This document shows positions 16,257 through 59,907 of a stretch of 64,000 bases of DNA, piece after piece; the stretch's first letter is position 1, and each line of letters opens with the position of its first letter. A program made the translations under genes and the position numbers. A model generated the notes under the pieces. The model saw only the letters and a program-made list of their open reading frames with translations, did no database searches and was not told the origin of the DNA. This DNA comes from a virus, in the IMG/VR virus record IMGVR_UViG_3300022902_000004, positions 62,268 through 126,267 of that record, one strand, 5' to 3'.

Positions 16257-19200
16257 CTATAGGATTTGCTTCATTTTGTATGATGCCGTGGAATGTCCCC
16301 AGTCGGCGTCGTGTTTTGTGTATGTCAGCCAAAGTGTGTAAGGCTCGACTTTTATTTTCTCTTTGCCCCAAACACGTAGCCAGGCGATTCGTGATTCATC
16401 ATCAATCACGCGGCAACGCATGAATGGTTTTCCGTTCTTCGTTTTCTTACGCTGGATCGTCTCGATACACATCCAGCCGATACCCTCATGCCCTTGTGGA
16501 ATGTCGTGCAATTTTGGAATACCTTTTGATTTCAGATGCGCCATGAGTTTAGGTGGAAATAACAGCTCAGTATTCGCAGCAGATGTTAGGTCATACGACA
16601 TTTCAACCTTTTCGGCCCGAGTCCAATCGCTGATGTCAGCAAAACGAGCCAGCTCAGTTTCTAGGAACAGCGGAGGCACTTCTCCCAACTTATTTGCTTT
16701 CTTGATCGCTGCCGCAGTCATTCCTAGGTTACCACGCTTGAGCTTAATATAATTCTTGTCGTCAGTGAGAGCAAACAGAAGCTGCCTGTAATTCAGAACA
16801 GACCCGTTGTGAATATCCTCCAATGAATCCATGGCTTCAATTTTGCAGAGCGCCTTCAATGCAGTTTTATTTGCCTTACTCAGTTTCCAGTTTCCATTTT
16901 CGTCAAAGAACATTTCATCCAAGGTTTTGAATGGACGCTCATTGATAATTTCGCGCATGGCAACCTTGCCGATCCCCTTCACGGCAGCCATTGGTGGCAC
17001 GAAAGCGTTTGCCGCCTCAGCGAATGTCCACTCGAAGTCAGAGTAATTCACGTCGACCTTTGCAATTGCATGGCCCATCTCCTTGATTTCTGCCAATGCC
17101 CTTGAAAGGCCTTTCGGGCTGCCATTCTCAGTTTCCAGAACCGTAGCCAGCCACTCCTTCTCATAGTGTGTCATCAACCAGGCACCGTAGTACGAATCGA
17201 TGGCATAAGCAATTGCGTGTGACTTGTTGAAGCCGTACAGCGAGAAATATGCAATCTTATCGAACAAGTCCTGTGCTTTCTTTCGGTTCATGCCACTTTT
17301 TTCAACACACCCATCAACAAACTTCTTTTCCAATGCCTCCTTTTCAGAAGATTTCTTTCCCAAAGACGTTAGATCCTTTTTAACCAATGTCTTCCGCATC
17401 TTGTCGGAGTCGCCTTCAGTAAACCCTGCCAATTTCACAGCAAGAAGCATGAAACTTTCCTGGAACACAATGAACCCGCATGTTTCTTCAAGCACCTCTT
17501 TGATGACAGGGTGGTCGTAAACCTGGGCAGCCGGGTTTGCCTTTGCTTTCACATAATCACGGTGAACATTTGCCTTCAATGGACCAGGACGATAGATTGC
17601 CGTCACCGCTGCCAACTCTGTCACGTTGTTTACCTGGGCATCTTTACAGAACTTCCTGGCTCCGCTCGATGTGAACTGGAAAATCCCAGGCCACTTGCCT
17701 TTTTTGTACACGTTATCAAACACCGACTGATCATCCGGATCAACATACCTGCAATTCAGCTTTTCATCATAGAATCGCTTGATATCTGCAAACGTAGGTG
17801 CTTTACCGGTCTCTTTCTTCAAGATTCGACGAATACAGTTCTCAACCATTTTCATTTGCTTGAGACCGAGGAAATCGAACTTCAAGAAACCGTTTTCCTC
17901 GAGGTTTCGAATGTTGACACCCTCTGTCCAGGGCGTCTGAAGTTCACCACGAACCTTGATCAATGGCATCGACTTTTCAAGCTCTGGACAAATCAGCACA
18001 CCACCGGCATGGCGGCCAACTGAGCGATTCATCATGAAGAGCGCCTTGATGTTGTGCTCGACGTCCGGATATTTCTCCATGAATGCCTTGTATGCTTTTG
18101 AGTATTTCATACAATCGTCATGCTTGAGCACAAACATCGACTTTTCCATGTTCGGATCACGGGATTTTCGCTCAACCTCTTTCTCCAGTGGTCCTGTGAC
18201 GGCATTTACCTCCGTGAACGGCACCCCGAAGAACTTCGAGACATCTTTTACCAACGATTTCAGCTTCAGTGTGTTGAAATTCGAGACTGGAATCACAGCA
18301 TCATCGCCGAAGAGTTCGCGAGCTGCGAAAATCAGTTCATCACGGTCACCAGCGTCAACGTCAATGTCAGGCCAACCAACACGATGACGACCAAGGAATC
18401 TGCCCCAAAGCAGACCGTGCGGAATCGGATCGACATGGGTGATGCCAAGGAGATAATTCACCAATGAACCGGCGCCAGATCCTCGTCCGGCACCCATCAA
18501 TGTTTTCTGTTCAGCGAGGTGCATTACCTTCTGCAACGTCAAGAAGTAGTTTTCAAAGCCCAGGAACTTGATGTCACTTAGCTCTGACAATGCTCTGGCA
18601 ACGTAAACCTTATCCTTCGACAGGCCTTCATCAACCAAAGCCTGCTTCACATTATCTCGGAGCTGGTCGAATGCAGACTTATCAGGCCTATCGAACGAAG
18701 GCAATTTCGCTGTGGTATCGAACCAAACCTCATCGCACATTTGCCATGCAACATCATGACCATTCTCAATTGACCCACGGACGAGATCCTCTGTCCCTTC
18801 ATACCAGTCGTACTTATCACGACATTTCAGGTATTCGTCCCACATTTGCTTTGCGTTTTTAGGGTAAAGCATGGTCTTCATTTCTTCACGTTCAGGAAGC
18901 TTGATCTCTTCTCCAACCTTCATACGACCAGGAAGCAGGTTTCGATAAATCTCACGAGCCTCCCAAAGATCAGGTCCTGGAAAGTGAGAATCAGCTGTTG
19001 AAATCAGACGTGTTCCCGTCTTCTTTGCCGCGTCAAGAACACAACGGTTCGTTAGATCCTGGGCACCCAAATCATTGAACTGCAATTCCAAGAAGAAGTT
19101 GTCAACACCCACGCAATCCGTGAAGCGGTCAATCATGTTCTCGATATTTCCAACAATCTTGCCACGAAGATTTGCATCATCAACGAGTTCCGGCTTCAAG

Positions 19201-19820
19201 CCCATGAACTTTGTATCAGGAAACTCCTGGAAAATGATTCCGGCGGGGCGACCTGAAACGCATGCCGTAGAAACTACAAGGCCTTCGCCATGCTCCTTTA
19301 GCATTTCGTAATCGATTCGAGGGAATCTATAGAACCCTTCCATGAACGATCGCTTCACCAGCGTGAACAGGTTGGCTAATCCAGTGGCATTTTTTGCAAT
19401 GACAACGAGGTGGTGACGTCGGTTTACATTGAAACCGGAGATGTCGACACGGGATTCGCCAACGTCTTCGACCACAAGACCGGCATCACTTCCGTCACCG
19501 GTTTGAGCTGTTCCCTTCTTTTTGGCGTCTTTCATAAGCGCTTTGTTTTTCGTCCACTCTTTGATAGAAGGAACGAAGTAGAATTCGACGCCGTAGATTT
19601 GACGGTATTTTTGGCCCTTCTTTTTTAGTTTCTTAGCGTGCGCGTGAGCATGTGCGAGACCGTTTCCGTTTCCGTGATCCGTTAGTGCCCAGCCATCAAG
19701 TTCATTCGATAAGCAGAAGTCGATATGCTGGTGGGGTTGCCCGAGTCCATCATACGCGCTGAACGTCGAATGAGAATGTATCGACACAAATCGATCCGGA
19801 GGAGTAAGAATACCTGTCAT
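16257..19820 (-). CDS. dnaE: DNA polymerase III alpha subunit (DnaE-type replicative polymerase, with PHP domain)
   Basis: The N-terminal PHP domain is FVSIHSHSTFSAYDG...DHGNGNG, and the palm is GAGRGSGAGSLVNYLLGITHVDP. The single continuous 1187 aa ORF shows no intein-sized insertion. Confidence 0.9.
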   Translation of the reverse strand: MTGILTPPDRFVSIHSHSTFSAYDGLGQPHQHIDFCLSNELDGWALTDHGNGNGLAHAHAHAKKLKKKGQKYRQIYGVEFYFVPSIKEWTKNKALMKDAKKKGTAQTGDGSDAGLVVEDVGESRVDISGFNVNRRHHLVVIAKNATGLANLFTLVKRSFMEGFYRFPRIDYEMLKEHGEGLVVSTACVSGRPAGIIFQEFPDTKFMGLKPELVDDANLRGKIVGNIENMIDRFTDCVGVDNFFLELQFNDLGAQDLTNRCVLDAAKKTGTRLISTADSHFPGPDLWEAREIYRNLLPGRMKVGEEIKLPEREEMKTMLYPKNAKQMWDEYLKCRDKYDWYEGTEDLVRGSIENGHDVAWQMCDEVWFDTTAKLPSFDRPDKSAFDQLRDNVKQALVDEGLSKDKVYVARALSELSDIKFLGFENYFLTLQKVMHLAEQKTLMGAGRGSGAGSLVNYLLGITHVDPIPHGLLWGRFLGRHRVGWPDIDVDAGDRDELIFAARELFGDDAVIPVSNFNTLKLKSLVKDVSKFFGVPFTEVNAVTGPLEKEVERKSRDPNMEKSMFVLKHDDCMKYSKAYKAFMEKYPDVEHNIKALFMMNRSVGRHAGGVLICPELEKSMPLIKVRGELQTPWTEGVNIRNLEENGFLKFDFLGLKQMKMVENCIRRILKKETGKAPTFADIKRFYDEKLNCRYVDPDDQSVFDNVYKKGKWPGIFQFTSSGARKFCKDAQVNNVTELAAVTAIYRPGPLKANVHRDYVKAKANPAAQVYDHPVIKEVLEETCGFIVFQESFMLLAVKLAGFTEGDSDKMRKTLVKKDLTSLGKKSSEKEALEKKFVDGCVEKSGMNRKKAQDLFDKIAYFSLYGFNKSHAIAYAIDSYYGAWLMTHYEKEWLATVLETENGSPKGLSRALAEIKEMGHAIAKVDVNYSDFEWTFAEAANAFVPPMAAVKGIGKVAMREIINERPFKTLDEMFFDENGNWKLSKANKTALKALCKIEAMDSLEDIHNGSVLNYRQLLFALTDDKNYIKLKRGNLGMTAAAIKKANKLGEVPPLFLETELARFADISDWTRAEKVEMSYDLTSAANTELLFPPKLMAHLKSKGIPKLHDIPQGHEGIGWMCIETIQRKKTKNGKPFMRCRVIDDESRIAWLRVWGKEKIKVEPYTLWLTYTKHDADWGHSTASYKMKQIL

Positions 19821-22248: not shown

Positions 22249-23178
22249 ATGATACACACATTGCGTCAATTGGTCCGTGAAACATTACTTGCTGAGAAGC
22301 GTATGCAGCCCGTTGGTGGGGAACACTTGGTAAAACGATTGAATCTAGAAATCAAGAAACTTTTATCTGAACCTGACATAAAAAATGAAATGAAAGCAAA
22401 ACTGCGCGGATCGACAGGTCTTCGTGACGATGACAAACTAGAAAAATTTGTCCATGATGACATTTCGAATGCGTCACACATCGCACAACTCCATCGAAGC
22501 TCAGGATACGTCGTTATAGAGTTTTATATTTCTCAATTTTTGAACTCGGGACCAATTAGAACGATGGCCGAAAAACGTGCAGACGACATAATTCGAAAAA
22601 CATCTAAAAACTATGGATGGTCTGTTCTTTCTGCAAACCATCGAGCACCCCCAGCCAGAGAGCTTCGTTATAACCTAGAAAGAAACTATGGGAATCGTAT
22701 AAGCGAAACAGAGGAGGTGTTATATCACGTGACGCGGTCACGTGACGTAGAAAGGATCCTGCGACAAGGGCTCACCCCTCGTCAAGCATCACACGAAACC
22801 GAAGAAGATAAACAAAACGACAGAGATTCAGGAGAACAACTGCAACAAGGGCGACAATATTCGCCCCGGGTGTACGTCACACCAAGCCTTGAGCTGGCAG
22901 ACGAGCTCTCCTTTTCATTTCAGCAGGATGGTTCAGACATGGGCGAGTACGATTATGAGGACTATACGTTTCTTAGAATTGACACGAGCAAATTGTTGCC
23001 TGGAACGAAATTTTATGAAGATTCAGAATTCGCCACGTCGCGTTACAAAGGCCAGTCATTCTGGACGTATTCTAGAATCCCAGCGGTGGCACTTTCAGTT
23101 GATATCGAAAGCCTCGCCGGCTACAAAAAATACCTGCGTGAGGTTGAGGCAGCAGCGCATGAAGACCCATGGTACTAA
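22249..23178 (+). CDS. Tpt1/KptA-like (RNA 2'-phosphotransferase / ADP-ribosyltransferase fold) protein, paralog 1, with conserved N-terminal leader
   Basis: The C-domain EVLYHVTRSRDVERILRQGLTPRQ...RVYVTPSLELADE resembles KptA [34 protein letters not shown]. The N-terminal leader is TLRQLVRETLLAEKRM. Confidence 0.45.
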   Translation: MIHTLRQLVRETLLAEKRMQPVGGEHLVKRLNLEIKKLLSEPDIKNEMKAKLRGSTGLRDDDKLEKFVHDDISNASHIAQLHRSSGYVVIEFYISQFLNSGPIRTMAEKRADDIIRKTSKNYGWSVLSANHRAPPARELRYNLERNYGNRISETEEVLYHVTRSRDVERILRQGLTPRQASHETEEDKQNDRDSGEQLQQGRQYSPRVYVTPSLELADELSFSFQQDGSDMGEYDYEDYTFLRIDTSKLLPGTKFYEDSEFATSRYKGQSFWTYSRIPAVALSVDIESLAGYKKYLREVEAAAHEDPWY

Positions 23179-24119
23179 ATAGTATGCATATGATATTTAA
23201 TGGTATGCCTAGCACATTACGCCAATTAGTCCGTGAAACACTGCTCGCTGAGCGACGCATGCAGCCCATCGGAGCAGAACATCTGGTGAAACGGTTAAAT
23301 GTAGAGTTCGGCAAAATCCTAAACTCACCTGCTGTTTTGAAACAAATGAGGAATGATGCCATTGCATCAATTGGCGAGAAAGGTGATCACACCGCAATCG
23401 ATGAAATTGTCGCATTAAAAATTAAGGAAAATTCAGATCCAGTCGGAAGCCACATTGACGACGCCGGCTACATCAACGTCATCATTCGTGTTGATCGCAT
23501 TTTAGCCGACGGCCCATTCATGGATTCATTTGAAAAAAACGTCGCCGAAATGTTCAAAACAACAGTTGGGAATTATGGCTGGTCGATACAGTCACTATCT
23601 CGTTCTTGGCATTCCCGTTGGATGATGTACGTGATAGAACGAAACTATGGCGACCAACAGCTCAATATGTCAAAAAAAATATACCATTTGGCGCGGTCAC
23701 AGGACGTAAAGAAAATCCTGAAAATGGGATTAATTCCGAAAAGACCATTGCAACTCGGGAATCATGATGAAGACTCAGAACATCTCGAGGTGGGTCGACA
23801 GTACGCGCCACGCGTTTATGTCACGACAAGCCGTAAACTAGGGAAAGAGCTTGTCAGTTTGTTCAGTGAGGCTGGTGGCTATAAAGGATCAGACAATATG
23901 GAGCATTATACTTTGCTCAAGATCAAAGGCCGGAAACTTTTACATGGCACTAAGTTTTATGCTGATGCAGAATTTGTATACAGCGATAAATGGAATGATC
24001 GCTCATTTTGGACGTACTCAAGAATTCCTCCGGAAGCAATCTCAATCGACAAAAAATGGCTCGCGGAATACCAAGAGTTTATGTCCCGTGATGATGATGA
24101 CGACCCAAGCTGGCCCTAA
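23169..24119 (+). CDS. Tpt1/KptA-like protein, paralog 2 (tandem duplicate)
   Basis: IYHLARSQDVKKILKMGLIPKR...RVYVTTS, and the N-terminus STLRQLVRETLLAERRMQPIG. There is nucleotide-level identity to paralog 1 over the leader (CAATTAGTCCGTGAAACACTGCTCGCTGAG). Confidence 0.45.
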   Translation: MVLNSMHMIFNGMPSTLRQLVRETLLAERRMQPIGAEHLVKRLNVEFGKILNSPAVLKQMRNDAIASIGEKGDHTAIDEIVALKIKENSDPVGSHIDDAGYINVIIRVDRILADGPFMDSFEKNVAEMFKTTVGNYGWSIQSLSRSWHSRWMMYVIERNYGDQQLNMSKKIYHLARSQDVKKILKMGLIPKRPLQLGNHDEDSEHLEVGRQYAPRVYVTTSRKLGKELVSLFSEAGGYKGSDNMEHYTLLKIKGRKLLHGTKFYADAEFVYSDKWNDRSFWTYSRIPPEAISIDKKWLAEYQEFMSRDDDDDPSWP

Positions 24120-24454: not shown

Positions 24455-25306
24455 CTAAAAGTTTCCTCGCGCCCAACCTGATGCCAGTTTGTCGAGAACA
24501 AATGCAGATCCACCGAATATATCATATGCCTGCTTGAGCCATGCCGCCGGGCCGGCCAACGATGTTAATGAGGATCCAATAAGTTTGCCGACCATATCAC
24601 CCAGCATGCCAATCAACATATCAGTTAATTCATCAACGATTATGTCTTTGACGCCTTGCGCTGCAGCTCTGGTAATGTCCCCTGCTGTCATTTCATGTAT
24701 TTTTCTTAATACTGGCATAACATTTTCGGCAAGCCAACTAAATCCAAGCAGGCCGGCTGCTGCCGTCAACAATCCTTTCCACCCAGATGCCTGCATGTTA
24801 TCCCTAGCATTTTCCAATTTTGCTATAAGAGCCTTAACGATTTTTGAAACTGGTCCCATATTTAGCTCGTCCAGCCTTTTTATGAGCTTGTGCAAGTACT
24901 TCAAAATAGTCTTGGCTCTTTTCTTCATTAACTGTTGCAAACCGTTTTTGAAAGTATCAAGCTTGTCTGGATCTGTAACTGCCGCCGCCATGGCTGCTAT
25001 AACACCTTTTGCATTTCTTCCATAGGTTTTTAATGCGTTAGCCGGGACAGCGGCTTTCTGCTTGATGTTTTCAATACTGTCACCAACAAACTCAGCAGCA
25101 GATGACCACCATCCTTCAAATAGGAAATGTTCACGGAGTATGTACACTTGGAGCTTATTGTTTCCGCGAGACTCTACAAGAACATTCCGATCAATACCCA
25201 GGACACGCGTTACATATGCTTCATTAAATTGATGCTTAAGCGCTGAATCTGCGATTAGTGTTTCATTTACAAATCGCCGCAAGTTACTATTCATCGGTAC
25301 TTTCAT
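24455..25306 (-). CDS. hypothetical protein (283 aa) carrying leader-like N-terminus
   Basis: N-terminus MKVPMNSNLRRFVNETLIAD. Confidence 0.45.
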   Translation of the reverse strand: MKVPMNSNLRRFVNETLIADSALKHQFNEAYVTRVLGIDRNVLVESRGNNKLQVYILREHFLFEGWWSSAAEFVGDSIENIKQKAAVPANALKTYGRNAKGVIAAMAAAVTDPDKLDTFKNGLQQLMKKRAKTILKYLHKLIKRLDELNMGPVSKIVKALIAKLENARDNMQASGWKGLLTAAAGLLGFSWLAENVMPVLRKIHEMTAGDITRAAAQGVKDIIVDELTDMLIGMLGDMVGKLIGSSLTSLAGPAAWLKQAYDIFGGSAFVLDKLASGWARGNF

Positions 25307-34235: not shown

Positions 34236-34562
34236 TCATCCGCATGCATAATCTGACGACCTATAATCCTCGTCACAGGTACCATAGTTACGAAGTGCCG
34301 TTTCGGCATAATCATATATGGCGTCGTCCGACATTCCGGCCTTGTCCAGGAGATACATAGCTTGCCGGTGCTGATCGTCGTACTCGTCGCCTGTGATGTT
34401 AACCTCGTTGGCGAGATGTTCGAGGGCTTCCTGGTATCCTGGATCATTATTCATCGCGGCAGGGTTCTCAGAGTGCACAACTAAAACACGATATGGACCA
34501 CTTAGTTGGTCTTCTACAGATTCTCGGATCAGTCGCCGGAGCTGGTTTTTTGTAATTTTCAT
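34236..34562 (-). CDS. leader-family small acidic protein A
   Basis: N-terminus MKITKNQLRRLIRE, then a unique acidic body. Confidence 0.45.
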   Translation of the reverse strand: MKITKNQLRRLIRESVEDQLSGPYRVLVVHSENPAAMNNDPGYQEALEHLANEVNITGDEYDDQHRQAMYLLDKAGMSDDAIYDYAETALRNYGTCDEDYRSSDYACG

Positions 34563-34951
34563 GTGGCGTTTCTCTTCGGTGTAGGTTGCTCGGTATGGAT
34601 GTGCCAGTCACGATATTCATCCGCTGACATATCATCGTCATCGTAGTCATCACGTTCGCCGGTGTAACCGAATGTGTCAACAATCCACTCAGCGTTTTCA
34701 GTCGCTGTTTCTTCATCAGCACCTGCACCTTCAAACGCGCGTGCTATGTCCATGACATGTGCGGTGTAGTCGTCGTTGGCGAACATGACAGCCAACGCCG
34801 ATGCCGCCTCTTCAGATTCCGGGGAACCCTGAGTGGCAGACATAAAGTTATATGTGTGCGTACGCTCGTCATCTTCATCATCTCCAGGCATCATATGTGG
34901 CATTGTCTGCTCTCGGATCAATCGTCGAAGCTGGTTTGGCGTGATTTTCAT
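34559..34951 (-). CDS. leader-family small acidic protein B
   Basis: N-terminus MKITPNQLRRLIRE; 4-nt overlap with A. Confidence 0.45.
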   Translation of the reverse strand: MKITPNQLRRLIREQTMPHMMPGDDEDDERTHTYNFMSATQGSPESEEAASALAVMFANDDYTAHVMDIARAFEGAGADEETATENAEWIVDTFGYTGERDDYDDDDMSADEYRDWHIHTEQPTPKRNAT

Positions 34952-34954
34952 TGT

Positions 34955-35305
34955 TTATTCCTCAAAGAATTGGTGAAAGATTTCTTCTGCCTGCCATGCG
35001 TCATCTTCATCAAAACCCATGGCCTCTGCTAGCTCCTCTAGCACACCTTCCCAAGATTGCCCCCAGGAAAGCCGACCGTCTGTTCCGACTTGACCGTAGC
35101 CCATCCCACGACCTCCGCTGAATTCGCCTTCATCTTCATGGCGCTGAAATTCTTTGACGATATAATCTACGACCTCAGGCTGAAGACTTAATTCGCGGGC
35201 TTTGGCGTGGGCCTCTTGCGGTGTCATAGCCCGGTCGGATGATGTTGTGTAGCGTGAAACTTGCTCACGAATTAGTCGACGTAGTTGGTTTTTTGTAACT
35301 TTCAT
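34955..35305 (-). CDS. leader-family small acidic protein C
   Basis: N-terminus MKVTKNQLRRLIRE. Confidence 0.45.
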   Translation of the reverse strand: MKVTKNQLRRLIREQVSRYTTSSDRAMTPQEAHAKARELSLQPEVVDYIVKEFQRHEDEGEFSGGRGMGYGQVGTDGRLSWGQSWEGVLEELAEAMGFDEDDAWQAEEIFHQFFEE

Positions 35306-35324: not shown

Positions 35325-35861
35325 CTAAATATCTGACAACTTCACAGCATGAGTTTTAATTACGAAAATCAAATATTTCATCAGTGCTGTCGCATCATCC
35401 TCAGACAATTCGACTGAAACATCACGCCAGGAAGACGACGAGAAGTTACGGCCCCCTGTATACCCAAGAACACGACCATCCTTCTTCTTAACGAGAAAGG
35501 CCTTGAGGTGGTGACTTTGTGTCAGGAACCAGGAGACATTCGGCCATGCATCGAAATGGGCATTATTCCTTGCGTCCCTCTTCTTGGATTTTGCAATGCA
35601 ATGTTCACAATCAGGAGTACAGATGATCGGGTCGCTCTCTGAGAGCAGGAAAATCACCTTCTTACCTTTATTTGACAAACCTAGAATCTTCTGGGGACGA
35701 CGATCAAAACTATACTTAGCTGCCGTGTTCTCACCGGTGTCTGAGATTCCAGCGTACATTCCATACGTCGAAATCATGATCGTTTCGGTGTCTTCCTGGG
35801 ATGCCTCCCAAAGAATTGTGTCCCAGTATTCTTGGCTGTCGGTAATCATTACTTTTTCCAC
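35325..35861 (-). CDS. hypothetical protein (178 aa), weak PLD/HKD-like segment
   Basis: HHLKAFLVKKKDGRVLGYTGGRNFS is loosely HxK..D..G.xN. It is not convincing. Confidence 0.35.
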   Translation of the reverse strand: MEKVMITDSQEYWDTILWEASQEDTETIMISTYGMYAGISDTGENTAAKYSFDRRPQKILGLSNKGKKVIFLLSESDPIICTPDCEHCIAKSKKRDARNNAHFDAWPNVSWFLTQSHHLKAFLVKKKDGRVLGYTGGRNFSSSSWRDVSVELSEDDATALMKYLIFVIKTHAVKLSDI

Positions 35862-36379
35862 GGGATTGTGCGGGCATCCTGGGTGTCGAAATCATACACG
35901 TAAACTTCGATGCCCTTGGCGATCAACTCTTCATTCACGATTTTCTCAATCTCTGACCATTTGCCGCCAGCCAGACCACAACCAATTCGAGGCATGTGAA
36001 CTGAGGCATGCATGACACCTGCATATGCAGCAACCTTTGATAAGCAGGAAGCTAAGGCATCATAACGAATCGGCGGGATGGCATCTTTCGTAAAGATGCC
36101 ATGCTGTGCAATCATGTTTACGACCGTGATTCCGTCAGATGATTCAACATATTGAACTTCGCCCAGACTCAGACGAGGCTGGCCTAGATGAGCTTCAGGA
36201 GGGTTTCCTTGATACCAGCTTCTGTACGCAGTTTCTGCAGCAGGATGTTCCTTCGATAAAGACAGGACAAATCCGCGGCCCCACCCGCCAATATCGTTGC
36301 AGATATGCGTGATTAGTTTCGTGCCTTCACCGATTGGTTTTGTGGCGTCGCCGTTGACATACTTGATTTCATTTTTCAT
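35849..36379 (-). CDS. macro domain protein, TARG1/OARD1-like (ADP-ribose / ADP-ribosyl-hydrolase family)
   Basis: GDATKPIGEGTKLITHICNDIGGWGRGFV and SVHMPRIGCGLAGGKWSEIEKIV match the TARG1 signatures (HCISEDCRMGAGIA; DLSMPRIGCGLDRLQWENV). Ends with EVYVYDFD. Confidence 0.8.
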   Translation of the reverse strand: MKNEIKYVNGDATKPIGEGTKLITHICNDIGGWGRGFVLSLSKEHPAAETAYRSWYQGNPPEAHLGQPRLSLGEVQYVESSDGITVVNMIAQHGIFTKDAIPPIRYDALASCLSKVAAYAGVMHASVHMPRIGCGLAGGKWSEIEKIVNEELIAKGIEVYVYDFDTQDARTIPWKK

Positions 36380-36656
36380 TCTCTATTACTCCTAATTCAT
36401 ATTTCGCGAAGGGTCTTTTGTCTTTATCTTCTTCAAAGAAAAACCATTCCATCCGATCGTGAAATTGTAATGTTACATATTTCGCATCGGGATCTCGTAT
36501 TACCCCTGAGCACAATGCTGGGCCTCTGTCATCACGATCACACCTATATGTTGTTTGACCGTGATAGCTCTTCGATGATAGCATAAGCTGGGTGAGCCTT
36601 ACTAGATCGCCCTTCTTTGGCATCCTTCCGATGATGTTTACCCATTTTTGCGACAT
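36369..36656 (-). CDS. hypothetical protein (95 aa)
   Basis: ORF in array. Confidence 0.3.
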   Translation of the reverse strand: MSQKWVNIIGRMPKKGDLVRLTQLMLSSKSYHGQTTYRCDRDDRGPALCSGVIRDPDAKYVTLQFHDRMEWFFFEEDKDKRPFAKYELGVIENEK

Positions 36657-37267: not shown

Positions 37268-37404
37268 TTATCAGCTATTTCATAGACCTCGCCGGCGTAT
37301 AAGTCAACAACAACCCTGCCGGCTTTATTACGACCACCGATCACAAAATCCGGGCTATCAAGTCCTGTTGGATCCACAATCATGATTTTGTCACCGATTT
37401 TCAT
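37180..37404 (-). CDS. hypothetical small protein (74 aa)
   Basis: ORF; overlaps the 5' end of the preceding gene, so one of the two starts is probably internal. Confidence 0.25.
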   Translation of the reverse strand: MKIGDKIMIVDPTGLDSPDFVIGGRNKAGRVVVDLYAGEVYEIADKWDAYLRLKHGRKRPWIHKSVCVPSRKKS

Positions 37405-38669
37405 TTATCAAGCCTCCAGCAAACGAAGGTGCCGAAGCGAAGCGAACCATCCTCCGTCTCTTCCTGGTATCGACATTCTGCAGTCATGCCCAGGAAATCG
37501 TCTTTGTTATTCCAAATCTCGACACGTTGTTCGTCATCGAAACCAGAACCAATTTTCACCTCGACACCATTGTGGTCGACCCACACAGCGCCAAGTTTTC
37601 CAACATTCTTGCCGGTTCCTTCCTTGAAACCGATGACCTCAAGATCGATGTCGATGAAGGACTTCACCTTCAGCATGTCATGTGAGCGACCGAACTTGTA
37701 GACGGCGTCTGGGCTTTTGACCATGGCACCTTCGAAACCCAGCGATTCCCAATGGGCTTGATGTGATGCGATTGCATCCATTGACTTTTCAACTTCCTGT
37801 TGCTCGATGAGGAAGATGTTGTCAGAACCAACGTTGTCGAACAGTGATTCAAGCCACTCACGACGCTCCCGCATTGTTGCGACACCTTTTCGATTGTCCC
37901 ACTCTTCCAGGGTGACATAGTCGAAAATGGTCAGGTACGATTTCGAAACGTTGGCACCGGTTTGGCGACGGTATTGACGCATCAAAGCAGTGAAATCTTC
38001 ATCCATAACCTCGCCGTCGTACACACCCTCCGGCCACGTCGCCAATTGGGCGCCGATGGTATCATCGAAATTGCTGATTCGTTTACCTGAGCGGGCATAC
38101 GATTCGCATGCGCCGTCCCGTACGATTGAAAGCAACCGGATTCCATCAAGCTTTGGCTCAAGGAAAACGTTCTTCGGCATCTTCTTGGCTGTTTTCTCGT
38201 TCCACTTGTCCGCAAGCTGGACTTTGAATGTCGTGATGAGCCCGGGAAAGACCTTGTTCGTGGTCGTTCGTGCGATACCAACGGCCGATTTCTTCTGAAT
38301 CAGACGGCGCATCCAGTACTCATCTTCTGGGGTGACCTGAACCAGCACGTTGCAGATGGCGTCGCGGGCTGCGTTGCCAGTAAGCTCTCGTGCCTGGCAC
38401 ATTTCCAGCACGTTGAAAAGCAGCTCCCAAATTTCGGCATCGGTCCGTGGGTGTTTCACGTCAATGCGAAGGTTAATCTTCGGAACCTTCTTGACCCAGA
38501 ATTGAATCGACTGGTCAAGGCTCAGCTTCAAAGCACGCTTCAGTGTCTCGTTGTCGCCGTTGGCTCGTAGAATGTCCAGTTTGGCATTTGTGCCTTTGGT
38601 TTCATTCACTGCATTCAAAATATCTGTAACACGCATTAGTTGACCTCTTTGTATCGTCCCCGGGAACAT
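37401..38669 (-). CDS. ATP-dependent DNA ligase
   Basis: Adenylation motif I is FLEPKLDGIRLL (KxDG). The nucleotidyltransferase is followed by an OB-domain, and the protein is 422 aa long. Confidence 0.85.
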   Translation of the reverse strand: MFPGTIQRGQLMRVTDILNAVNETKGTNAKLDILRANGDNETLKRALKLSLDQSIQFWVKKVPKINLRIDVKHPRTDAEIWELLFNVLEMCQARELTGNAARDAICNVLVQVTPEDEYWMRRLIQKKSAVGIARTTTNKVFPGLITTFKVQLADKWNEKTAKKMPKNVFLEPKLDGIRLLSIVRDGACESYARSGKRISNFDDTIGAQLATWPEGVYDGEVMDEDFTALMRQYRRQTGANVSKSYLTIFDYVTLEEWDNRKGVATMRERREWLESLFDNVGSDNIFLIEQQEVEKSMDAIASHQAHWESLGFEGAMVKSPDAVYKFGRSHDMLKVKSFIDIDLEVIGFKEGTGKNVGKLGAVWVDHNGVEVKIGSGFDDEQRVEIWNNKDDFLGMTAECRYQEETEDGSLRFGTFVCWRLDK

Positions 38670-45545: not shown

Positions 45546-45793
45546 TCTTGGGTATACACGATATGTTTGCCGAATTGCACATCTTCTTTGCTGTTTTTAT
45601 TGATAGAAACCTGTGCGATTTTTGTTACAAGCTCCCCGGTGGGTGTTTGCTCAACGAAGACATATTCCTCCATCATACCAGGCCGGCACTCGGGACTTTG
45701 TTGCCAGGATCCCGGTAGAATGCCTGGCGTTGGTGGCGTCATAGTTTGCAAAACCTTGACCGCTTGGTCAAATCGTTCTTGTGTCAATAACAT
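45542..45793 (-). CDS. hypothetical small protein (83 aa)
   Basis: 4-nt overlap. Confidence 0.3.
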   Translation of the reverse strand: MLLTQERFDQAVKVLQTMTPPTPGILPGSWQQSPECRPGMMEEYVFVEQTPTGELVTKIAQVSINKNSKEDVQFGKHIVYTQE

Positions 45794-46772
45794 TCTTTAT
45801 TTCCTGTCGTTTCATTTCGATGTCGTCTGATTCCCAAACCACTATAACAGTGTATCCCATTCGTCGTAAGTTTTCACTTCGTTTGGCATCGGCAGCCCAT
45901 TTTTCTTCAGCAAGAAACGATTGGCCCCGAAGGCGCACATTGAATTTGGCTTCATAGAGTTTCGGGTTGGCATGGACATAATCACCATTGATTTCGACAA
46001 TGACCTTTTTCTTTTCGTTGAGCTCATCAGCAAAGTAGGCGCCCACTCGTTGCTCTGATACAAAGCCCAGTTTTGTCAGGCCGAGCTCTTTCCGGAGGCG
46101 TTGGTGGAGCTTTGACAACCTGTTTTTGGAACCGGCGAACATCTTACGTAATGTCGCTGCTTTTTGCGCCGGGGTTCTGTTTTTTCTCCAGTGCGCTTGT
46201 TTCTTCCTGTATGATTCCTTTTTCCAATTTCGTTTTGAACCCTTCCCTATCGCTTTCTTCCAGGTCTCGTCCATGACGACTTCACCTTTTGCCCACCTAG
46301 CTTTCATCTTCTTGGATGAACCTTTGGCGATATGGGGAAGCTGCCCGACGTTTTTGACACCGTACTTCTTCTTCACGACCTTCTTGATTTTTTCTTGTGT
46401 TTTCTTTAGTGAAAAGCCGGCGTTCAGTCCGGAGCACCTTTGTGAGCAATACGATTTTGGTTTGCCACGGACGAAAGTCACAGCCTTCTTGCAGGACTTC
46501 TCCTTACATTTGGGCTTGCCATACTTTTTGATATAGAGTTTTTCTCTTGTCTTGAATTTGTCGTGAGTAAGAGCATATCTCTTGAACACACCCCTGGCAA
46601 ATGCAGGAGGCAGATCGCAAAGCCCACAAATGCACTTTGGTGGTTTGCCATCAAGCTTGTGCTTAATGACGTAATCGACCATTTCCATTTTGTGGGCTTT
46701 GCGGAGATGAGTAGTTAGCTGTCCGCCTAAATTATCCTTGAATCCTTTTTTGCATTCTTTGCACTTGATCAT
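45768..46772 (-). CDS. free-standing homing-endonuclease-like protein (Zn fingers, K-rich, C-terminal Vsr/DUF559-like VIVEINGDYVH)
   Basis: CKECKK...H..H, CICGLC, multiple K-rich repeats, the C-terminal FADEL...VIVEINGDYVHANP. It sits next to the RNR gene. Confidence 0.5.
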   Translation of the reverse strand: MIKCKECKKGFKDNLGGQLTTHLRKAHKMEMVDYVIKHKLDGKPPKCICGLCDLPPAFARGVFKRYALTHDKFKTREKLYIKKYGKPKCKEKSCKKAVTFVRGKPKSYCSQRCSGLNAGFSLKKTQEKIKKVVKKKYGVKNVGQLPHIAKGSSKKMKARWAKGEVVMDETWKKAIGKGSKRNWKKESYRKKQAHWRKNRTPAQKAATLRKMFAGSKNRLSKLHQRLRKELGLTKLGFVSEQRVGAYFADELNEKKKVIVEINGDYVHANPKLYEAKFNVRLRGQSFLAEEKWAADAKRSENLRRMGYTVIVVWESDDIEMKRQEIKNVIDTRTI

Positions 46773-55282: not shown

Positions 55283-55813
55283 TTACTTTGCGTAAATTGT
55301 TGGTTTCGAAACCAGCTTGGCGTTGGCAAACCCGATGCCTTTATCGAGGTTCAAAATGCCACCGTTCTCTGCTGCGCGTAACGTAATAACAAGATACTTC
55401 GTTGCATCCCGTTGTTTCAAGTCTTCATCGAACGAGATGCTGAATCCTTCGACGTCTTGGCCTTTCGAGTTCTTCGTACGTGTTCTTTTGAAGTCGCCGT
55501 AAGCTTCTGCCATAATCTCGTTCGACCGAATTGCTTGCTGTAAAACGGAAACAGCTTTGATTGCATCCGTCTTACCTTCCGCTTTTTGAGTTACACCGAG
55601 ATCGCGTAATAGGCCTTTTGGGTCTGCTTCTGCTCGTCCTTTCGTAAACGCAATCTCCTTGGCGAAGGTACCGCCAGTGCCATACGCACCATGCCAGTCG
55701 ACCTTGCTCTTATTGGCTTTTGCTTCATGTAGAAAATCTTCGACCGCCTCTAAAAGCATCGCATCAAGTTTGTCGTTCATTGTATCACCTTTCCGCATAT
55801 AAATATCAAACAA
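55283..55813 (-). CDS. hypothetical protein (176 aa)
   Basis: ORF in array. Confidence 0.35.
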   Translation of the reverse strand: MFDIYMRKGDTMNDKLDAMLLEAVEDFLHEAKANKSKVDWHGAYGTGGTFAKEIAFTKGRAEADPKGLLRDLGVTQKAEGKTDAIKAVSVLQQAIRSNEIMAEAYGDFKRTRTKNSKGQDVEGFSISFDEDLKQRDATKYLVITLRAAENGGILNLDKGIGFANAKLVSKPTIYAK

Positions 55814-56921
55814 TAGCCAGCGTCGATGGAAACTTTATGTTTTCAAATTGTAATGCTGCCAACTCGGTTTTCAATGTTTCGATGTCACATTTTGGAATCT
55901 CAGCAATGAGGGCATCATGAATCACCAGCTGAGGCTTCATCGATGGCACTGCATCACATAACTTTGCAAATAACAGCACCGCCAACTCGGCCGCTGTCGA
56001 CTGAATGTAGTGGTTTACCCTTACTCTTTCAGTCTTTGTCGCATCATGCAGAGGTCGGCCGAAAAAATTCCTGACCATACCTTGTCTGGCTTGCTCTTCT
56101 AGCATCCCCTCTAAACTTGGTACATCAAAAAATGCCTTGACGTTTGCTACGACTGATGCCGCCTTACTTTTTGACTTCACCGTTTCTATGAGGCTACGCT
56201 CTGATGCCCCATACAACGCCGAAATTGTTGCAAGTTTTGCGATAGGACGAGTGGAAATATCACAGACATCCATAAGATACTCGTACACATCCATGTTCCC
56301 GATGTCATGTTGCAGCAACATTAGTGCAACTCGTGGCTCCATTGACGTAAAATCAATAATTGCGATATCCGAGTCACTTTTTGAAGCTCGGAGGGCTTTC
56401 CTTGACTTTGCTGGTGCAACAAGGAAATTCGGCCCCTTGGTAATCGTTAGCCTGCCGGTCGCCGAACCTGCTGTGGAGTATTTCACCCTTGGAAGAATTC
56501 CCGTCAAAATTGATGCCTTGAATGCATTTCCTTTCATAATTTGTGATTCTTGACGGATTGCGCTCCATGGCTTCGGCACTGTATAGATCCTATGCAAGCT
56601 GTCGAGGAAATCCCTAACCTGCAACCACGTCGACAAATACGTTTGATTTTCATCGAAACTCATCGCCTGCTTCATAGCCCGAAGTGACGCAGCCACAATT
56701 TCGTCGCGCTTCTTTTTTGCAATCATGACTGGCCACAATGATGAGTCGTTTGTAAGCGTGCTCGTCATGGCAAGCGTTTCATCGCCAACGAATTGGTACT
56801 TTTCATTGTCAACGATTGATAGGAACTCCTCAAGCATATCGAGAGTCAGAATCCCGTCAAGACCGTCTGCAACGTTGCCGACCCGAAGAAGATCATTTTT
56901 GACTTGAAGACATAAATCCAT
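55806..56921 (-). CDS. minimal family-A (Pol I-type) DNA polymerase, polymerase domain only
   Basis: KYSTAGSATGRLTITKGPNF (compare TATGRLSSTDPNLQNIP). Motif A is IAIIDFTSMEPRVALMLL (DYSQIELR), motif B RPIAKLATISALYGAS (RRxAKxxNFGxxYG), NHYIQSTAAEL (QGTAAD), motif C LVIHDALIAEIP (VHDE). 371 aa with no exonuclease domains. Confidence 0.7.
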   Translation of the reverse strand: MDLCLQVKNDLLRVGNVADGLDGILTLDMLEEFLSIVDNEKYQFVGDETLAMTSTLTNDSSLWPVMIAKKKRDEIVAASLRAMKQAMSFDENQTYLSTWLQVRDFLDSLHRIYTVPKPWSAIRQESQIMKGNAFKASILTGILPRVKYSTAGSATGRLTITKGPNFLVAPAKSRKALRASKSDSDIAIIDFTSMEPRVALMLLQHDIGNMDVYEYLMDVCDISTRPIAKLATISALYGASERSLIETVKSKSKAASVVANVKAFFDVPSLEGMLEEQARQGMVRNFFGRPLHDATKTERVRVNHYIQSTAAELAVLLFAKLCDAVPSMKPQLVIHDALIAEIPKCDIETLKTELAALQFENIKFPSTLAIV

Positions 56922-56952: not shown

Positions 56953-59907
56953 TCAGGACTTTTTTCGTTTTGATGCATTTGCAATTTCGATTGTGACGAT
57001 CGTGTCTTCAATCTCGCTGTCAACATGAACAAATGATCCGAATGCATCTGTTTGAATCAAATCGACGTTCGTTTTGAACTCACCGCGGTTGATTGTATGG
57101 TTTACACTTGTCACGGCATAAAAATTGTCAGCCGATGTATTCGTACCCATGTCAACAAAAAACTTCTGTGCCATCCTGAAATATGGACAGCCAAACGTTT
57201 CAAGTCGCAACGTCGTCGGGTGAACCATCAGTGGTAACGACATATCTTCCTTGGCGCCGTTTCCGTCTTTTCCAGTTATTGCTTTTGTCAGTGCTATCGA
57301 TGTTAGCGCGTCGTTCTGTTGTGATGACAAATTTGCAGACAATATACCGGATGCTGCAGAGCCGTATATCAGACTCGGGGCAAACTCAAAAAACAGTTCC
57401 TTGATGTTGTTTTTTGCCTTTTTGAAATTGAAAACCTCAGTTGCGTTGAGTCGCTCCCTCAGCTCAGTTTCTTTCTTTGGCGGGAACGGGAGCTTGTCTG
57501 CCTTCGATATCCTTTTTATTTCCTCGATGATGTCATCAATTTTGCTTGTTCCACCAAGATGGTCAGCAAGCGAAGCAGTAAGCTTTCTGTCACGAAGTGT
57601 TTTGTATGTTGCCGCTGATGTTTCGCCATGGCGAGCACCTCTTTCATTCGCTGGACCGTTGAGCGAATCATTAACAAAATGGCCTAGCCTTGCGGCCTTA
57701 TTGAATGTGTCTATAATCGGCATAACCTGGCCGGCTGCGGCGTCGAAAAATGTCACCCGTGTGATGTTCTTTCCCGAGTTGTCGGAGCTTTTTCTGGTGA
57801 CAATATTCATCGTAACATGCGGCGGCCGGAATGTTGGCCTGATGCGTTTCATTTCATAAATGTTTCGCAGGTTTTCATGCAGTTTGTTATTGAACGATTT
57901 CCTATTGCCTTTTTTGCTTAGTATTCTATCAATATTTGCCCGGTAAACAGCTTTAAGGGTTTTATCATCTCGCTTATCAGGCTGATAGATATCGGACAAC
58001 CCATATGCACTACTTCCTTGGAACGATAAAAAGTACTTTTCTACGAACTGCAAGAGTTCATACGCCGAGATTTTCGTCTTCTTTTTTGCCTCTGCAACAA
58101 GGTACTTTCGCAAATCGTCGATATCGATTGGGAACTGTGAGATGTTGTGATCATACATCGCACCAGCAGAGCTATTAAATGGCGTGAAAATAAGCTGAAG
58201 ATCATTGTCCTGCGACGAGAACACCGGTGTCAAGAAATGTGTCATTAGCTTCCCGAACGAGATGTATGCTTGTTTTCCACGTTTTGATTTTTTGTTTTGG
58301 TTAAGCTTGCCGCCCTTGGTAAGATGTCCATCATTCAATTTTGATGATGTTACCCCACGCTTTGTTGGTCGAAGAAACGGATCAGGCGTTGACCGAAGGT
58401 AGTCGATGTGATCAGTGATGTTCTCTTTCACTGTTTTTTCTGCTCGATCCAGCAATGATTTCTTTCCACGAGACCGCACGCCGATGAGCTTTATAAGTTC
58501 GGTGTTGACGTCTTTTAGGCTTGTTCCTGATTTTCTTAGCTTCGCTGACGCTTTTTTTAGGGCTTTTTTATCCTTCGGGGTAAGGTTTAACACGTTTTCA
58601 GGACTTATGCCCATGACAATCTGGGGAATGCTCACGTTTGGCATCCTTTTTTGAATGTCTCTCATCTTTTTCTGGATTGCATGCATTACTGACATCACGC
58701 TAGCAACGCTTTCGCTGTCAGCGACACTTAGAATATCAGTTGCCGATGCGGCGCCAGTACCTACCATCGCCAAATCAACACTTACCGCAACTGTTCCATC
58801 ACTCTCAAATTCAAATGAGCTATTCGTTACAATATACGATTCTGATATCCGCATTGCATTTATCAAGTCTCCCATTTTTGTTTGAGATGCGTCAGCGCCC
58901 CTTTGCACAAACTGGCCGTCTGGGTGTGACCAGCCATACGTAATGTAGAACTGCACATTTCCTTTCCGCTGTGGTGAGACTAGTGGGGCAATATCCTGTA
59001 GCCGACCTCGATCGAATAGTTTCATATTCAATTTCGCGGATTTATGAGAAATCGTTCCAAACGCCGTTGGCACAATACTGATTTCTATTCCGTCGAGGCT
59101 CAAAAAGGGCCTAAACTTGTCAATCGGTCTCGATTCGCCTGGCTCATATGTTCTGTCGGCAGCCACCATAGTTTGCGGCGACGTAAAAACTTCCATTGAT
59201 GAAACAGCCTGCAGGTTTGATTGCTTGCTTGAGGCGAACGTGTCGGCTGTCCCAACCTTACCCAAAAATTTGCCACGGAGAGCCTTCTCTGATATTCCTG
59301 CACCTAAAAACTTACCAAGGGAAAAGTGTGCATCCTGGACGAAATTTCCAGTATCTTTATCGACGCCTGCATCCCCCACAGCCGATGATACAGTGATGTC
59401 AATATATGGCACTGCCCGAGACATTTCTAATGATGTCAAGTTACTCATAAACAGCGTGATGATTTCAGTGTCTGCAATGTCATGCCCTCGTGCCGCCGGG
59501 AAAACCTGGTATACGGTTGCTGCATTATCTGGCACCTTCGATGTTTGAATGACGTCCGTGTATATTCCGTAATGTTTTTCTTTTGGTTTTCCCCACCCCT
59601 GATCTTTGCCCGGCACGTTCAATACATCATCAGGAATACTACCTTGCTCATCTGCAGGAGTTACGCAAACATCAATTTTTGCATTTTTGCCATAACTGTT
59701 TAGCAGTTTGTAGATTTCAGCATCTGGCATAAACTCGACACCGTCGCCAAAAATCTCCTGAAAGAACATGTCCTTGCTGGTTTGACGTGCTGAACTTGCT
59801 GATTTCGCTGTCGAGTTTTCAATTGCAGACAGGAATGCGTCCTGTTCACGCAATCCAAAGTACCTCGCTAAGTCATTGTATATTTTTCTTGCTGTTCGAA
59901 CTGCCAT
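56953..59907 (-). CDS. large virion-associated (structural) protein, about 984 aa
   Basis: Long ORF. The track gives 56953..60015; start trimmed to the Met that abuts the stop of the upstream small gene. No enzymatic motif recognised; follows the LysM/gpX-like gene. Confidence 0.45.
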   Translation of the reverse strand: MAVRTARKIYNDLARYFGLREQDAFLSAIENSTAKSASSARQTSKDMFFQEIFGDGVEFMPDAEIYKLLNSYGKNAKIDVCVTPADEQGSIPDDVLNVPGKDQGWGKPKEKHYGIYTDVIQTSKVPDNAATVYQVFPAARGHDIADTEIITLFMSNLTSLEMSRAVPYIDITVSSAVGDAGVDKDTGNFVQDAHFSLGKFLGAGISEKALRGKFLGKVGTADTFASSKQSNLQAVSSMEVFTSPQTMVAADRTYEPGESRPIDKFRPFLSLDGIEISIVPTAFGTISHKSAKLNMKLFDRGRLQDIAPLVSPQRKGNVQFYITYGWSHPDGQFVQRGADASQTKMGDLINAMRISESYIVTNSSFEFESDGTVAVSVDLAMVGTGAASATDILSVADSESVASVMSVMHAIQKKMRDIQKRMPNVSIPQIVMGISPENVLNLTPKDKKALKKASAKLRKSGTSLKDVNTELIKLIGVRSRGKKSLLDRAEKTVKENITDHIDYLRSTPDPFLRPTKRGVTSSKLNDGHLTKGGKLNQNKKSKRGKQAYISFGKLMTHFLTPVFSSQDNDLQLIFTPFNSSAGAMYDHNISQFPIDIDDLRKYLVAEAKKKTKISAYELLQFVEKYFLSFQGSSAYGLSDIYQPDKRDDKTLKAVYRANIDRILSKKGNRKSFNNKLHENLRNIYEMKRIRPTFRPPHVTMNIVTRKSSDNSGKNITRVTFFDAAAGQVMPIIDTFNKAARLGHFVNDSLNGPANERGARHGETSAATYKTLRDRKLTASLADHLGGTSKIDDIIEEIKRISKADKLPFPPKKETELRERLNATEVFNFKKAKNNIKELFFEFAPSLIYGSAASGILSANLSSQQNDALTSIALTKAITGKDGNGAKEDMSLPLMVHPTTLRLETFGCPYFRMAQKFFVDMGTNTSADNFYAVTSVNHTINRGEFKTNVDLIQTDAFGSFVHVDSEIEDTIVTIEIANASKRKKS

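Follow-up and report, generated by a model that had tools for sequence, protein, structure and literature searches.

The stretch of viral DNA analysed here, in the following called the window (64,000 nucleotides, positions 62,268 to 126,267 of the IMG/VR record IMGVR_UViG_3300022902_000004), encodes a stand-alone macrodomain protein that we believe, with a probability of roughly 55%, to act in counter-defence. Judged from its sequence, it would be an AdfM-like glycohydrolase of the glutamine-type SCO6735 class removing thymine-linked ADP-ribose after attack by a DarT2-like toxin. We infer this substrate and the role in vivo from the observed fold family and subclass, the conservation of the catalytic residues, the position of the gene in an operon and the homology to AdfM of phage T4. 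A preliminary description of the same DNA had proposed the reversal of thymidine ADP-ribosylation by a TARG1/OARD1-type macro domain. By analogy, the proposed activity agrees with the one known from SCO6735 (PMC9411070) and with the protection conferred by T4 Tk.4/AdfM; the functional guess was good, the family label imprecise.

The macrodomain gene is a real open reading frame (ORF) of 176 codons with a Shine-Dalgarno sequence and a best PDB match at E 4.7e-54, and both sequence strings by which it had been recognised, HICNDIGGWGRGF (residues 25-37 of the translation) and MPRIGCGLAGGKW (residues 129-141), are present. In a phmmer search of all PDB chains this best match was BT1257 of Bacteroides thetaiotaomicron (2AFC/2FG1, E 4.7e-54 and 8.9e-54, about 55% identity). 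SCO6735 of Streptomyces coelicolor (5E3B) was matched over its full length (E 3.8e-47, about 50% identity), and the same applies to the macrodomain of CHD1L/ALC1, with a strong match at E 1e-15. Partial matches were obtained for the ADP-ribose-1''-phosphate phosphatase 6LFU (about residues 2-52 of the macrodomain protein, E 3e-7 with phmmer to 9e-11 with a profile) and for TARG1/OARD1 (residues 121-163, approximately, at E 0.014 with the single sequence; about 94-163 overall, at 1e-8 with the profile), and DarG of T. aquaticus was found at E 0.009 with the single sequence. The profile, built from 25 members of the family, ranked the PDB entries in the order BT1257 (1e-71), SCO6735 (2e-63, residues 2-163), ALC1 (2e-19), 6LFU, TARG1 and DarG (3e-6) and retrieved no MacroD-type chain (MacroD1/2, YmdB, Af1521, viral X domains) at E<=0.1. 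A placement in the Poa1p/Appr-1''-pase clade only, considered in the preliminary description, was not found: there is no full-length similarity to the Poa1p-type phosphatase family, and the 6LFU match is confined to the N-terminal region.

Searches of family libraries are in accord with this order. Pfam Macro remained below its gathering score (14.4 versus 22 bits), and the NCBIfam DarG equivalog NF048014 reached 22.5 bits against a cutoff of 250. The sole match in a defence library was PADLOC DarG (E 1e-5, 23 bits), covering the macro part only; the PADLOC DarT model matched none of the neighbouring genes tested. The PHROG family phrog_335, annotated as 'phosphatase', was matched at 2e-31, and 4982 homologues were found at E<=1e-5 in a collection of 5.8 billion proteins. 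These relationships place the protein in the BT1257/SCO6735 subclass of the ALC1-like class, and it is neither a TARG1 nor a DarG proper. The earlier label thus holds for the broad ALC1-like/TARG1/DarG class and fails for TARG1 proper, for which only the C-terminal part matches and in whose catalytic positions Gln92 and Ala137 are found. Similarly, one of the two strings called diagnostic of TARG1, the second one (PRIGCGL), is indeed common with TARG1, but the first is the signature of BT1257/SCO6735 and partly Poa1p-like. With BT1257 the window protein has all motifs in common, including HICNDIGGWG+GF and HMPRIGCGLAGGKW; BT1257 differs in being bacterial and in a mobile loop longer by one residue. 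We know of no published activity of BT1257, which is a structural-genomics 'conserved hypothetical'.

The residues of SCO6735 found by mutagenesis to be important, H24, V25, N27, Q85, G126 and G128, align with His25, Ile26, Asn28, Gln92, Gly133 and Gly135, which together with Ala137 are the key residues of the window protein. Their invariance was counted in an alignment of the 120 closest homologues and, separately, in 81 viral loci. Asn28, Gln92 and Gly133 are kept throughout (120/120 and 81/81), His25 in 119 of the 120 homologues and 79 of the 81 viral copies, and Gly135 in every homologue and 77 of the viral copies. In the phage copies the catalytic-site residues of SCO6735 are under strong purifying selection. 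The catalytic pair Lys84/Asp125 of TARG1 corresponds to Gln92 and Ala137 in the window protein, with Ala137 being invariant in the 120 homologues, and Gln92 also stands in place of the catalytic Lys80 of DarG. For the equivalence of Gln92 with the Lys84/Lys80 position we follow the structure-based alignment of PMC9411070; the TARG1 sequence as aligned by us has K84 and D125 at the expected numbers and is consistent with the PDB match at its C-terminus. Because of this exchange a Schiff-base mechanism of the TARG1 type is impossible in the window protein. The preliminary description would have counted a loss of the catalytic Lys/Asp against the proposed function. Both are formally missing, yet this test is invalid since ADP-ribose on both DNA and protein is a substrate of the glutamine-type SCO6735 subclass.

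SCO6735 itself carries neither Lys84/Asp125 of TARG1 nor Lys80 of DarG, has Gln85 at the lysine position, and belongs to a subclass whose mobile loop exceeds that of TARG1/DarG by five residues (PMC9411070). The loop of the window protein, QHGIFTKDAIPPIRY (15 residues), equals the SCO6735 loop QHGMKTGSKGAPVRY in length and is gapped against TARG1. Both proteins are stand-alone single domains, and they agree in their catalytic residues (His, Val/Ile, Asn, Gln and a Gly-x-Gly phosphate-binding loop). They differ in an insertion of 6-8 residues after helix 1 of the window protein (residues ~57-68), and SCO6735 is a chromosomal, DNA-damage-inducible gene whereas the window gene is phage-encoded. 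With TARG1/OARD1 (4J5S) the window protein has the macro fold class and the phosphate-binding loop PRIGCGL in common, but the Lys84/Asp125 dyad of TARG1 is absent from it and the similarity is confined to the C-terminal third. DarG (5M31/5M3E), although of the same macrodomain class, gave weak matches only; besides its Lys80 it has a C-terminal DarT-binding domain (~330-340 amino acids in total), for which there is no counterpart in the 176 residues of the window protein, and it is encoded beside darT, whereas no darT is adjacent to the window gene.

Several activities of SCO6735 have been published. The protein strips DarT-made thymidine ADP-ribose off single-stranded DNA (ssDNA) more efficiently than DarG or TARG1 (PMC9411070). 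It rescues E. coli from DarT toxicity and inhibits DarT through binding, an inhibition still exerted by the Q85A variant (PMC9411070). The exchanges Q85A and Q85E abolish activity towards both kinds of substrate, DNA and protein, Asn27 fixes Gln85 in place, the backbone of Val25 holds the proposed catalytic water, and G128E in the phosphate-binding loop reduces the activity (PMC9411070). SCO6735 also cleaves mono-ADP-ribose linked to Glu/Asp of proteins, with a strong preference for DNA in competition assays (PMC9411070), and, on RNA, ADP-ribose linked to uracil (PMC13036486). TARG1 likewise cleaves thymidine-ADP-ribose, and it acts on 5'-phosphate ADP-ribose. SCO6735, in contrast, is described in the Results of PMC11833690 as inactive on 5'-phosphate ADP-ribose of RNA/DNA, the Tpt1/KptA product, and on 2'-OH ADP-ribose of RNA. 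The Discussion of the same paper contradicts this and calls SCO6735 active on RNA phosphate ends; since the two sections conflict, the substrate range of the subclass on phosphate-linked ADP-ribose is unsettled. The suggestion made earlier that the macrodomain processes by-products of Tpt1 chemistry is without support; the inactivity of SCO6735 on 5'-phosphate ADP-ribose reported in these Results speaks against it.

By homology to SCO6735, ADP-ribose would be held between two loops of the window protein, one for phosphate binding (P130-RIGCGLAGG-139) and one for substrate binding (N28-DIGGWGRG). Asn28 would hold Gln92, which would position the distal ribose, and a water on the Ile26 backbone would start the N-glycosidic cleavage between ADP-ribose and N3 of thymine in ssDNA, leaving free ADP-ribose and intact DNA. 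The gene would be expressed together with the replication and repair genes (ligase, Fpg/Nei, gp32, RecA, Pol III alpha), and thymidine ADP-ribose attached by host DarT2-type toxins would be erased on replicating phage ssDNA, allowing replication to proceed.

The concept of a macrodomain acting against DarT has already been published in 2025-2026 under the name AdfM. Among the anti-DarT factors of phages, AdfA and AdfB act by binding the toxin, and the NADAR enzyme AdfN is directed against DarT1 (PMC11825919). Gp104 of PhiKZ, termed AdfM and described as the first macrodomain Adf, is a DarG2-like lysine-type macrodomain (N23/K78) removing DarT2 marks (PMC13309987, Cell Rep 2026). The T4 gene tk.4, named AdfM too, was the single hit of a transposon screen required for resistance of T4 to DarTG2 (bioRxiv 10.1101/2025.11.20.689424). 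In a comparison with the profile of our family, the orthologue of Tk.4 from a T4-like phage proved to be a clear homologue (hhalign probability 99.1%, E 1e-18), sharing AH-x-CN, an aligned Asn plus Gln (NLYTQY versus NMIAQHG) and PRIGCG-x-AGG-x-W, and is likewise a phage-encoded stand-alone macrodomain. In contrast to the window protein, Tk.4 has a mobile loop shorter by five residues, without the long loop of the SCO6735 subclass, and its gene is located between vs and tk. As a consequence of the homology to T4 Tk.4 and its aligned Gln, a glutamine-type phage macrodomain is already backed by genetics as a factor against DarTG2. PhiKZ gp104, a jumbo-phage stand-alone macrodomain with the same proposed role, is only marginally related to the family of the window protein (hhalign probability 6.8%, E 0.005) and is imported into the phage nucleus; no sign of a nucleus-forming phage was seen in the window, in which no search aimed at nucleus genes was made. 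Going by the alignment, the window protein can be called an AdfM in the sense of a phage stand-alone macrodomain homologous to a validated one, the T4-type Tk.4. Macrodomain anti-DarT factors have so far been shown in PhiKZ-like phages and T4 alone. If our interpretation is correct, the reach of AdfM widens to the mechanistically distinct glutamine-type SCO6735 subclass and to marine jumbo phages, and thymidine ADP-ribosylation would be, given the commonness of the subclass in viruses, a widespread pressure on phages beyond those of enterobacteria and Pseudomonas.

The macrodomain gene overlaps both flanking ORFs (Table) and is therefore embedded in an operon; the tightly packed gene string around it is probably translationally coupled. 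No family match was found for the 95-amino-acid upstream ORF, and none in Pfam, PHROG, PADLOC and PDB for the 174-amino-acid downstream ORF. The latter accompanies the macrodomain gene solely within the present phage lineage, with 85-89% identity. A PLD/HKD motif (HLKAFLV...GGRNFS) suspected in this ORF was dropped, as neither Pfam nor PDB supported it. A scan for promoters and terminators around the macrodomain gene returned sites no commoner than in shuffled sequence. In GC content, overall and at third codon positions, the gene resembles its neighbours, and the identical protein is encoded on at least 23 metagenomic contigs.

Features of the window in the surroundings of the macrodomain gene (coordinates refer to the window; aa, amino acids; nt, nucleotides; ART, ADP-ribosyltransferase)
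Feature	Coordinates	Strand	Remarks
Macrodomain gene	35849..36379	-	176 aa, ATG to TAA; SCO6735/BT1257 subclass of ALC1-like macrodomains
Shine-Dalgarno sequence AGGAG	36389..36393	-	9 nt 5' of the macrodomain ATG, within the 3' end of the upstream ORF; read directly from the sequence
Upstream ORF, 95 aa	36369..36656	-	11-nt overlap with the macrodomain start
Downstream ORF, 174 aa	35325..35849	-	TAATG stop/start overlap with the macrodomain gene; probably translationally coupled
ATP-dependent DNA ligase	37401..38669	-	Pfam DNA_ligase_A_M and OB_2, phrog_114 7e-111; upstream, same gene string
Fpg/Nei-family DNA glycosylase	33024..33671	-	Pfam Fapy_DNA_glyco 1.9e-16; MPEG..., catalytic Pro2-Glu3 N-terminus; downstream, same gene string
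Tpt1-like ART-fold protein A, 309 aa	22249..23178	+	Invariant H160, R207-x-Y209-x-T211-x-S213, D258-x-E260; N-terminal LRQLVRE motif
Tpt1-like ART-fold paralogue B	23205..24119	+	41% identical to A; probable start Met13 of ORF 23169..24119
R-S-ExE ART candidate, 290 aa	29897..30769	+	Y103-R104-G105, S168-W169, E226-x-E228; true start 29897 within ORF 29876..30769
ORFs with the N-terminal motif	10512..10748(-), 22249..23178(+), 23169..24119(+), 24455..25306(-), 29876..30769(+), 34236..34562(-), 34559..34951(-), 34955..35305(-)		N-terminal pattern

The window is the replication block of a large phage, with a DnaE-type Pol III alpha, gp32, RecA/UvsX, a 5'-3' exonuclease, DnaB and ribonucleotide reductase. 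Contigs of 184 kb and 318 kb carrying identical genes indicate a jumbo phage. Relatives come from Tara and other marine metagenomes; among deposited phages, megablast found no nucleotide-level relative of the region from 30 to 42 kb of the window. Genes of nucleotide metabolism encode TK, dCMP deaminase, ThyX, NT5C and a nucleoside deoxyribosyltransferase, and further genes a Dam methylase, a ClpP-like protease and homing endonucleases. The gene order around the macrodomain is ligase, three small ORFs, macrodomain, 174-amino-acid ORF, three small paralogues, a 149-amino-acid ORF and Fpg/Nei. In two related loci (L013/L014), whose macrodomain protein is 59% identical, the order is ligase, macrodomain, Fpg/Nei and then, on the opposite strand, a Tpt1-like gene; in L013 the macrodomain gene lies directly between ligase and Fpg/Nei. 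This repair and replication setting is consistent with a function directed at DNA. Genes of the homing-endonuclease type interrupt the block at 32224..33021(-), 26916..27773(-) and 45768..46772(-) (GIY-YIG with NUMOD3, TnsA-like with NUMOD3, DUF559-like), and such insertions probably explain why ligase, macrodomain, Fpg/Nei and Tpt1-like genes take up 16 kb in the window and no more than about 4 kb in L013. The DarT2 motif TNTC is not avoided in the window: 2609 sites stand against 2451 +/- 39 expected from dinucleotide-preserving shuffles, none of which reached 2609. This modest excess may simply reflect codon usage. The phage makes and uses thymidine, as ThyX, TK and dCMP deaminase are encoded in the window.

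The SCO6735-type macrodomain is common in viruses, with 127 IMG/VR loci and 38 Streptomyces phage records. In 16-18 of about 80 IMG/VR loci (within L015-L049), which belong to another clade, the gene directly follows NAMPT and NMNAT-Nudix, a pair for NAD+ reconstitution of the NARP2 type; the NARP papers, in the literature as searched, do not mention macrodomains. In these loci as well as in L008 (4602-8513) and L009 (4727-8516), a conserved block of NMNAT-Nudix, NAMPT, (a DSPc-like phosphatase) and the macrodomain is followed by a C39-like peptidase, PTH2-like and HD_4 genes. Streptomyces phages carry the gene beside metallophosphoesterase and rIIA/rIIB-like genes; in Streptomyces phage Francob (gp167, PP537961.1; L093:3498-3986) it is situated directly upstream of the rIIA/rIIB-like genes. 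An 'ADP-ribosyltransferase' at the Francob locus turned out to be the macrodomain gene itself, labelled with the opposite activity, and other Streptomyces phage records label the gene as hypothetical, hydrolase or phosphatase. No partner gene is conserved beside the macrodomain across phage lineages, the neighbours differing by clade. In its placement the macrodomain gene resembles a mobile accessory gene, and its surroundings in other clades are typical of anti-defence.

Several observations weigh against an anti-DarT function. The DNA-binding loop lysines of SCO6735, Lys89 and Lys93, are not kept; in the window protein Phe96 takes the place of Lys89, and Lys98 is the only lysine of the loop. 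The isoelectric point of the protein is 6.3 compared to 9.5 for SCO6735 and 8.4 for BT1257, and exchange of Lys89 in SCO6735 (K89E) lowers the activity on DNA and improves the one on protein (PMC9411070). The position equivalent to Lys89 varies across the family (M, F, L, R), and the basic loop lysines are a property of SCO6735 itself, no family-wide feature. Together with the acidic surface and the short T4 loop, the missing loop lysines make the phage copies natural variants for the choice between DNA and protein substrates. Furthermore, the alignment of Gln with Gln in Tk.4 rests on 22-26% identity, and the substrate could in reality stem from the three ART-fold proteins of the phage itself. 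Finally, in about a fifth of the viral loci the homologue stands beside NAMPT and NMNAT-Nudix and not beside repair genes, which makes a metabolic or a more general role in NAD+ conflicts possible.

The ART-fold proteins deserve a description of their own. The preliminary description had noted a Tpt1-like pair and an R-S-E ART near the macrodomain, and with invariant residues in the former and the R-S-ExE signature in the latter, the phage very probably encodes three ART-fold proteins in this region. None of the three ORFs gave a match in any sequence library, including Pfam, PHROG and PADLOC. In their predicted fold the Tpt1-like proteins are nearest to Tpt1/KptA; H160, Y209 and E260 form an H...Y...E-like set that is more reminiscent of ARTs of the DarT/PARP type. 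Their family, with nine members among 5.8 billion proteins, is lineage-restricted, comprises proteins of about 300 amino acids and is represented by no Pfam or PHROG model. In relatives (L013:11386-12339(-), L094-L097) the Tpt1-like gene is always arranged head-to-head with Fpg/Nei. The R-S-ExE family has 66 relatives in an exhaustive HMMER search, with nearly invariant YRG, SW and ExE positions, a classic R-S-ExE signature; some members are C-terminal domains of proteins of 400-760 amino acids. It stands outside Pfam, PHROGs and PADLOC and has no sequence relative in the PDB.

All three ART-fold proteins bear an N-terminal tag. The motif L-[RV]-[RQK]-[LF]-[IV]-[RNK]-E was detected within the first 5-17 residues of eight otherwise unrelated ORFs, e.g. 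MKITKNQLRRLIRE and MIHTLRQLVRE, and is never met at internal positions of ORFs of at least 50 codons in the six frames of the window. A similar N-terminus, MRVPLKELRRVVREVL, is found in another phage clade (L015). We take the tag to resemble the capsid-targeting sequence of T4 and its [LI]-x-E cleavage site. In T4 this sequence tags diverse injected internal proteins (PMC3012670). Given two unannotated ART families and an N-terminal tag common to them, the genes around the macrodomain arguably deserve more interest than the macrodomain does. Another tagged ORF, the 283-amino-acid ORF 24455..25306(-) with the motif LRRFVNE, gave two weak and unconvincing matches, one to the OLD nuclease family of PADLOC (E 2.5e-4, 18 bits) and one to PhoU_div (E 0.002).

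These genes are the basis of the writer-and-eraser toolkit proposed in the preliminary description. The ART genes are indeed nearby, but the evidence for their coupling to the macrodomain is weak: a Tpt1-like gene lies within 10 kb of the macrodomain in 3 of 80 IMG/VR loci, all three belonging to this lineage, and an R-S-ExE gene in none. The position of the macrodomain gene relative to the pair of Tpt1-like gene and Fpg/Nei also varies: it is adjacent in L013, about 3.7 kb away in L094 and absent from the ligase-Fpg interval of L095. It is unlikely, in our view, that the macrodomain serves as eraser or self-immunity for the ARTs of the phage, keeping phage DNA, RNA and proteins clear or timing a reversal, with the ARTs possibly injected together with the DNA. 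All three ART genes are located at most 14 kb from the macrodomain gene, the Tpt1-like gene of L013/L014 is found about 900 bp from it in a cassette of ligase, macrodomain, Fpg and ART, and ARTs of the toxin type are commonly paired with hydrolase immunity (DarT/DarG; the ART-ARH pair 8za7). However, the constant partner of the Tpt1-like gene is Fpg/Nei and not the macrodomain, as the L094 and L095 loci illustrate, 77 of the 80 viral macrodomain loci are without a Tpt1-like gene in the 10-kb range, and ART and macrodomain genes are encoded on opposite strands without forming an operon. Furthermore, if the Tpt1-like enzymes produce 5'-phosphate ADP-ribose, this is a linkage on which SCO6735 is inactive (PMC11833690 Results). 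Slightly less likely is an extended version, in which tagged ARTs are packaged, injected and modify host nucleic acids or proteins during host takeover, the macrodomain being the eraser arm of this phage ADP-ribosylation toolkit and a macrodomain-Nei-ligase cassette protecting the phage DNA.

A hydrolase for ADP-ribose on proteins (Glu/Asp) or RNA bases (uracil), countering host ART defences that act on proteins or transcripts, is doubtful as well. SCO6735 handles both linkages, and the mildly acidic window protein without the DNA-binding lysines recalls the shift of the K89E variant toward protein substrates; on the other hand, competition assays showed a strong preference of SCO6735 for DNA over protein, and the neighbours of the macrodomain gene are DNA-repair genes. 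We know of no bacterial anti-phage defence that makes Glu/Asp- or U-linked ADP-ribose. We regard as improbable a role in NAD+ or ADP-ribose metabolism, as a Poa1p-like phosphatase or an O-acetyl-ADP-ribose deacetylase that clears Tpt1-type or sirtuin by-products or feeds NAD+ salvage. Such names are suggested by phrog_335 and by JGI, which calls homologues O-acetyl-ADP-ribose deacetylase, but these are automatic annotations, and the resemblance of the N-terminal 50 residues to the 6LFU phosphatase is limited to a shared loop, the full-length relatives being macromolecular glycohydrolases. The homologues directly after NAMPT and NMNAT-Nudix would fit a metabolic role; this synteny equally fits a shared anti-defence island, and no NAMPT/NMNAT or other NAD+-salvage genes were found between 6 and 59 kb of the window. 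Very improbable is a non-catalytic protein, either an ADP-ribose binder (reader or sponge) or a stoichiometric DarT inhibitor like catalytically dead SCO6735. Next in closeness among the solved relatives comes the ALC1 macrodomain, which binds without being an enzyme and also has Gln at the position of Gln92, and SCO6735 Q85A inhibits DarT by interaction. ALC1 differs, however, at the phosphate-binding loop (GHATKG versus GCGLAGG) and at Asn, while the phage copies keep all catalytic-site residues of SCO6735 under strong purifying selection.

Apart from these subjects, the replication block contains some unusual genes. A replicative polymerase of the DnaE type, as is the Pol III alpha with PHP, DNA_pol3_alpha, finger and HHH_6 domains encoded here (16257..19820(-)), is unusual for a phage, and a separate ORF of 371 amino acids (55806..56921(-)) carries a Pol A domain fragment alone. 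Two long ORFs, 56953..60015(-) with 1020 and 60204..63350(-) with 1048 amino acids, have no PHROG match; a relative of the first is on record without a Pfam hit.

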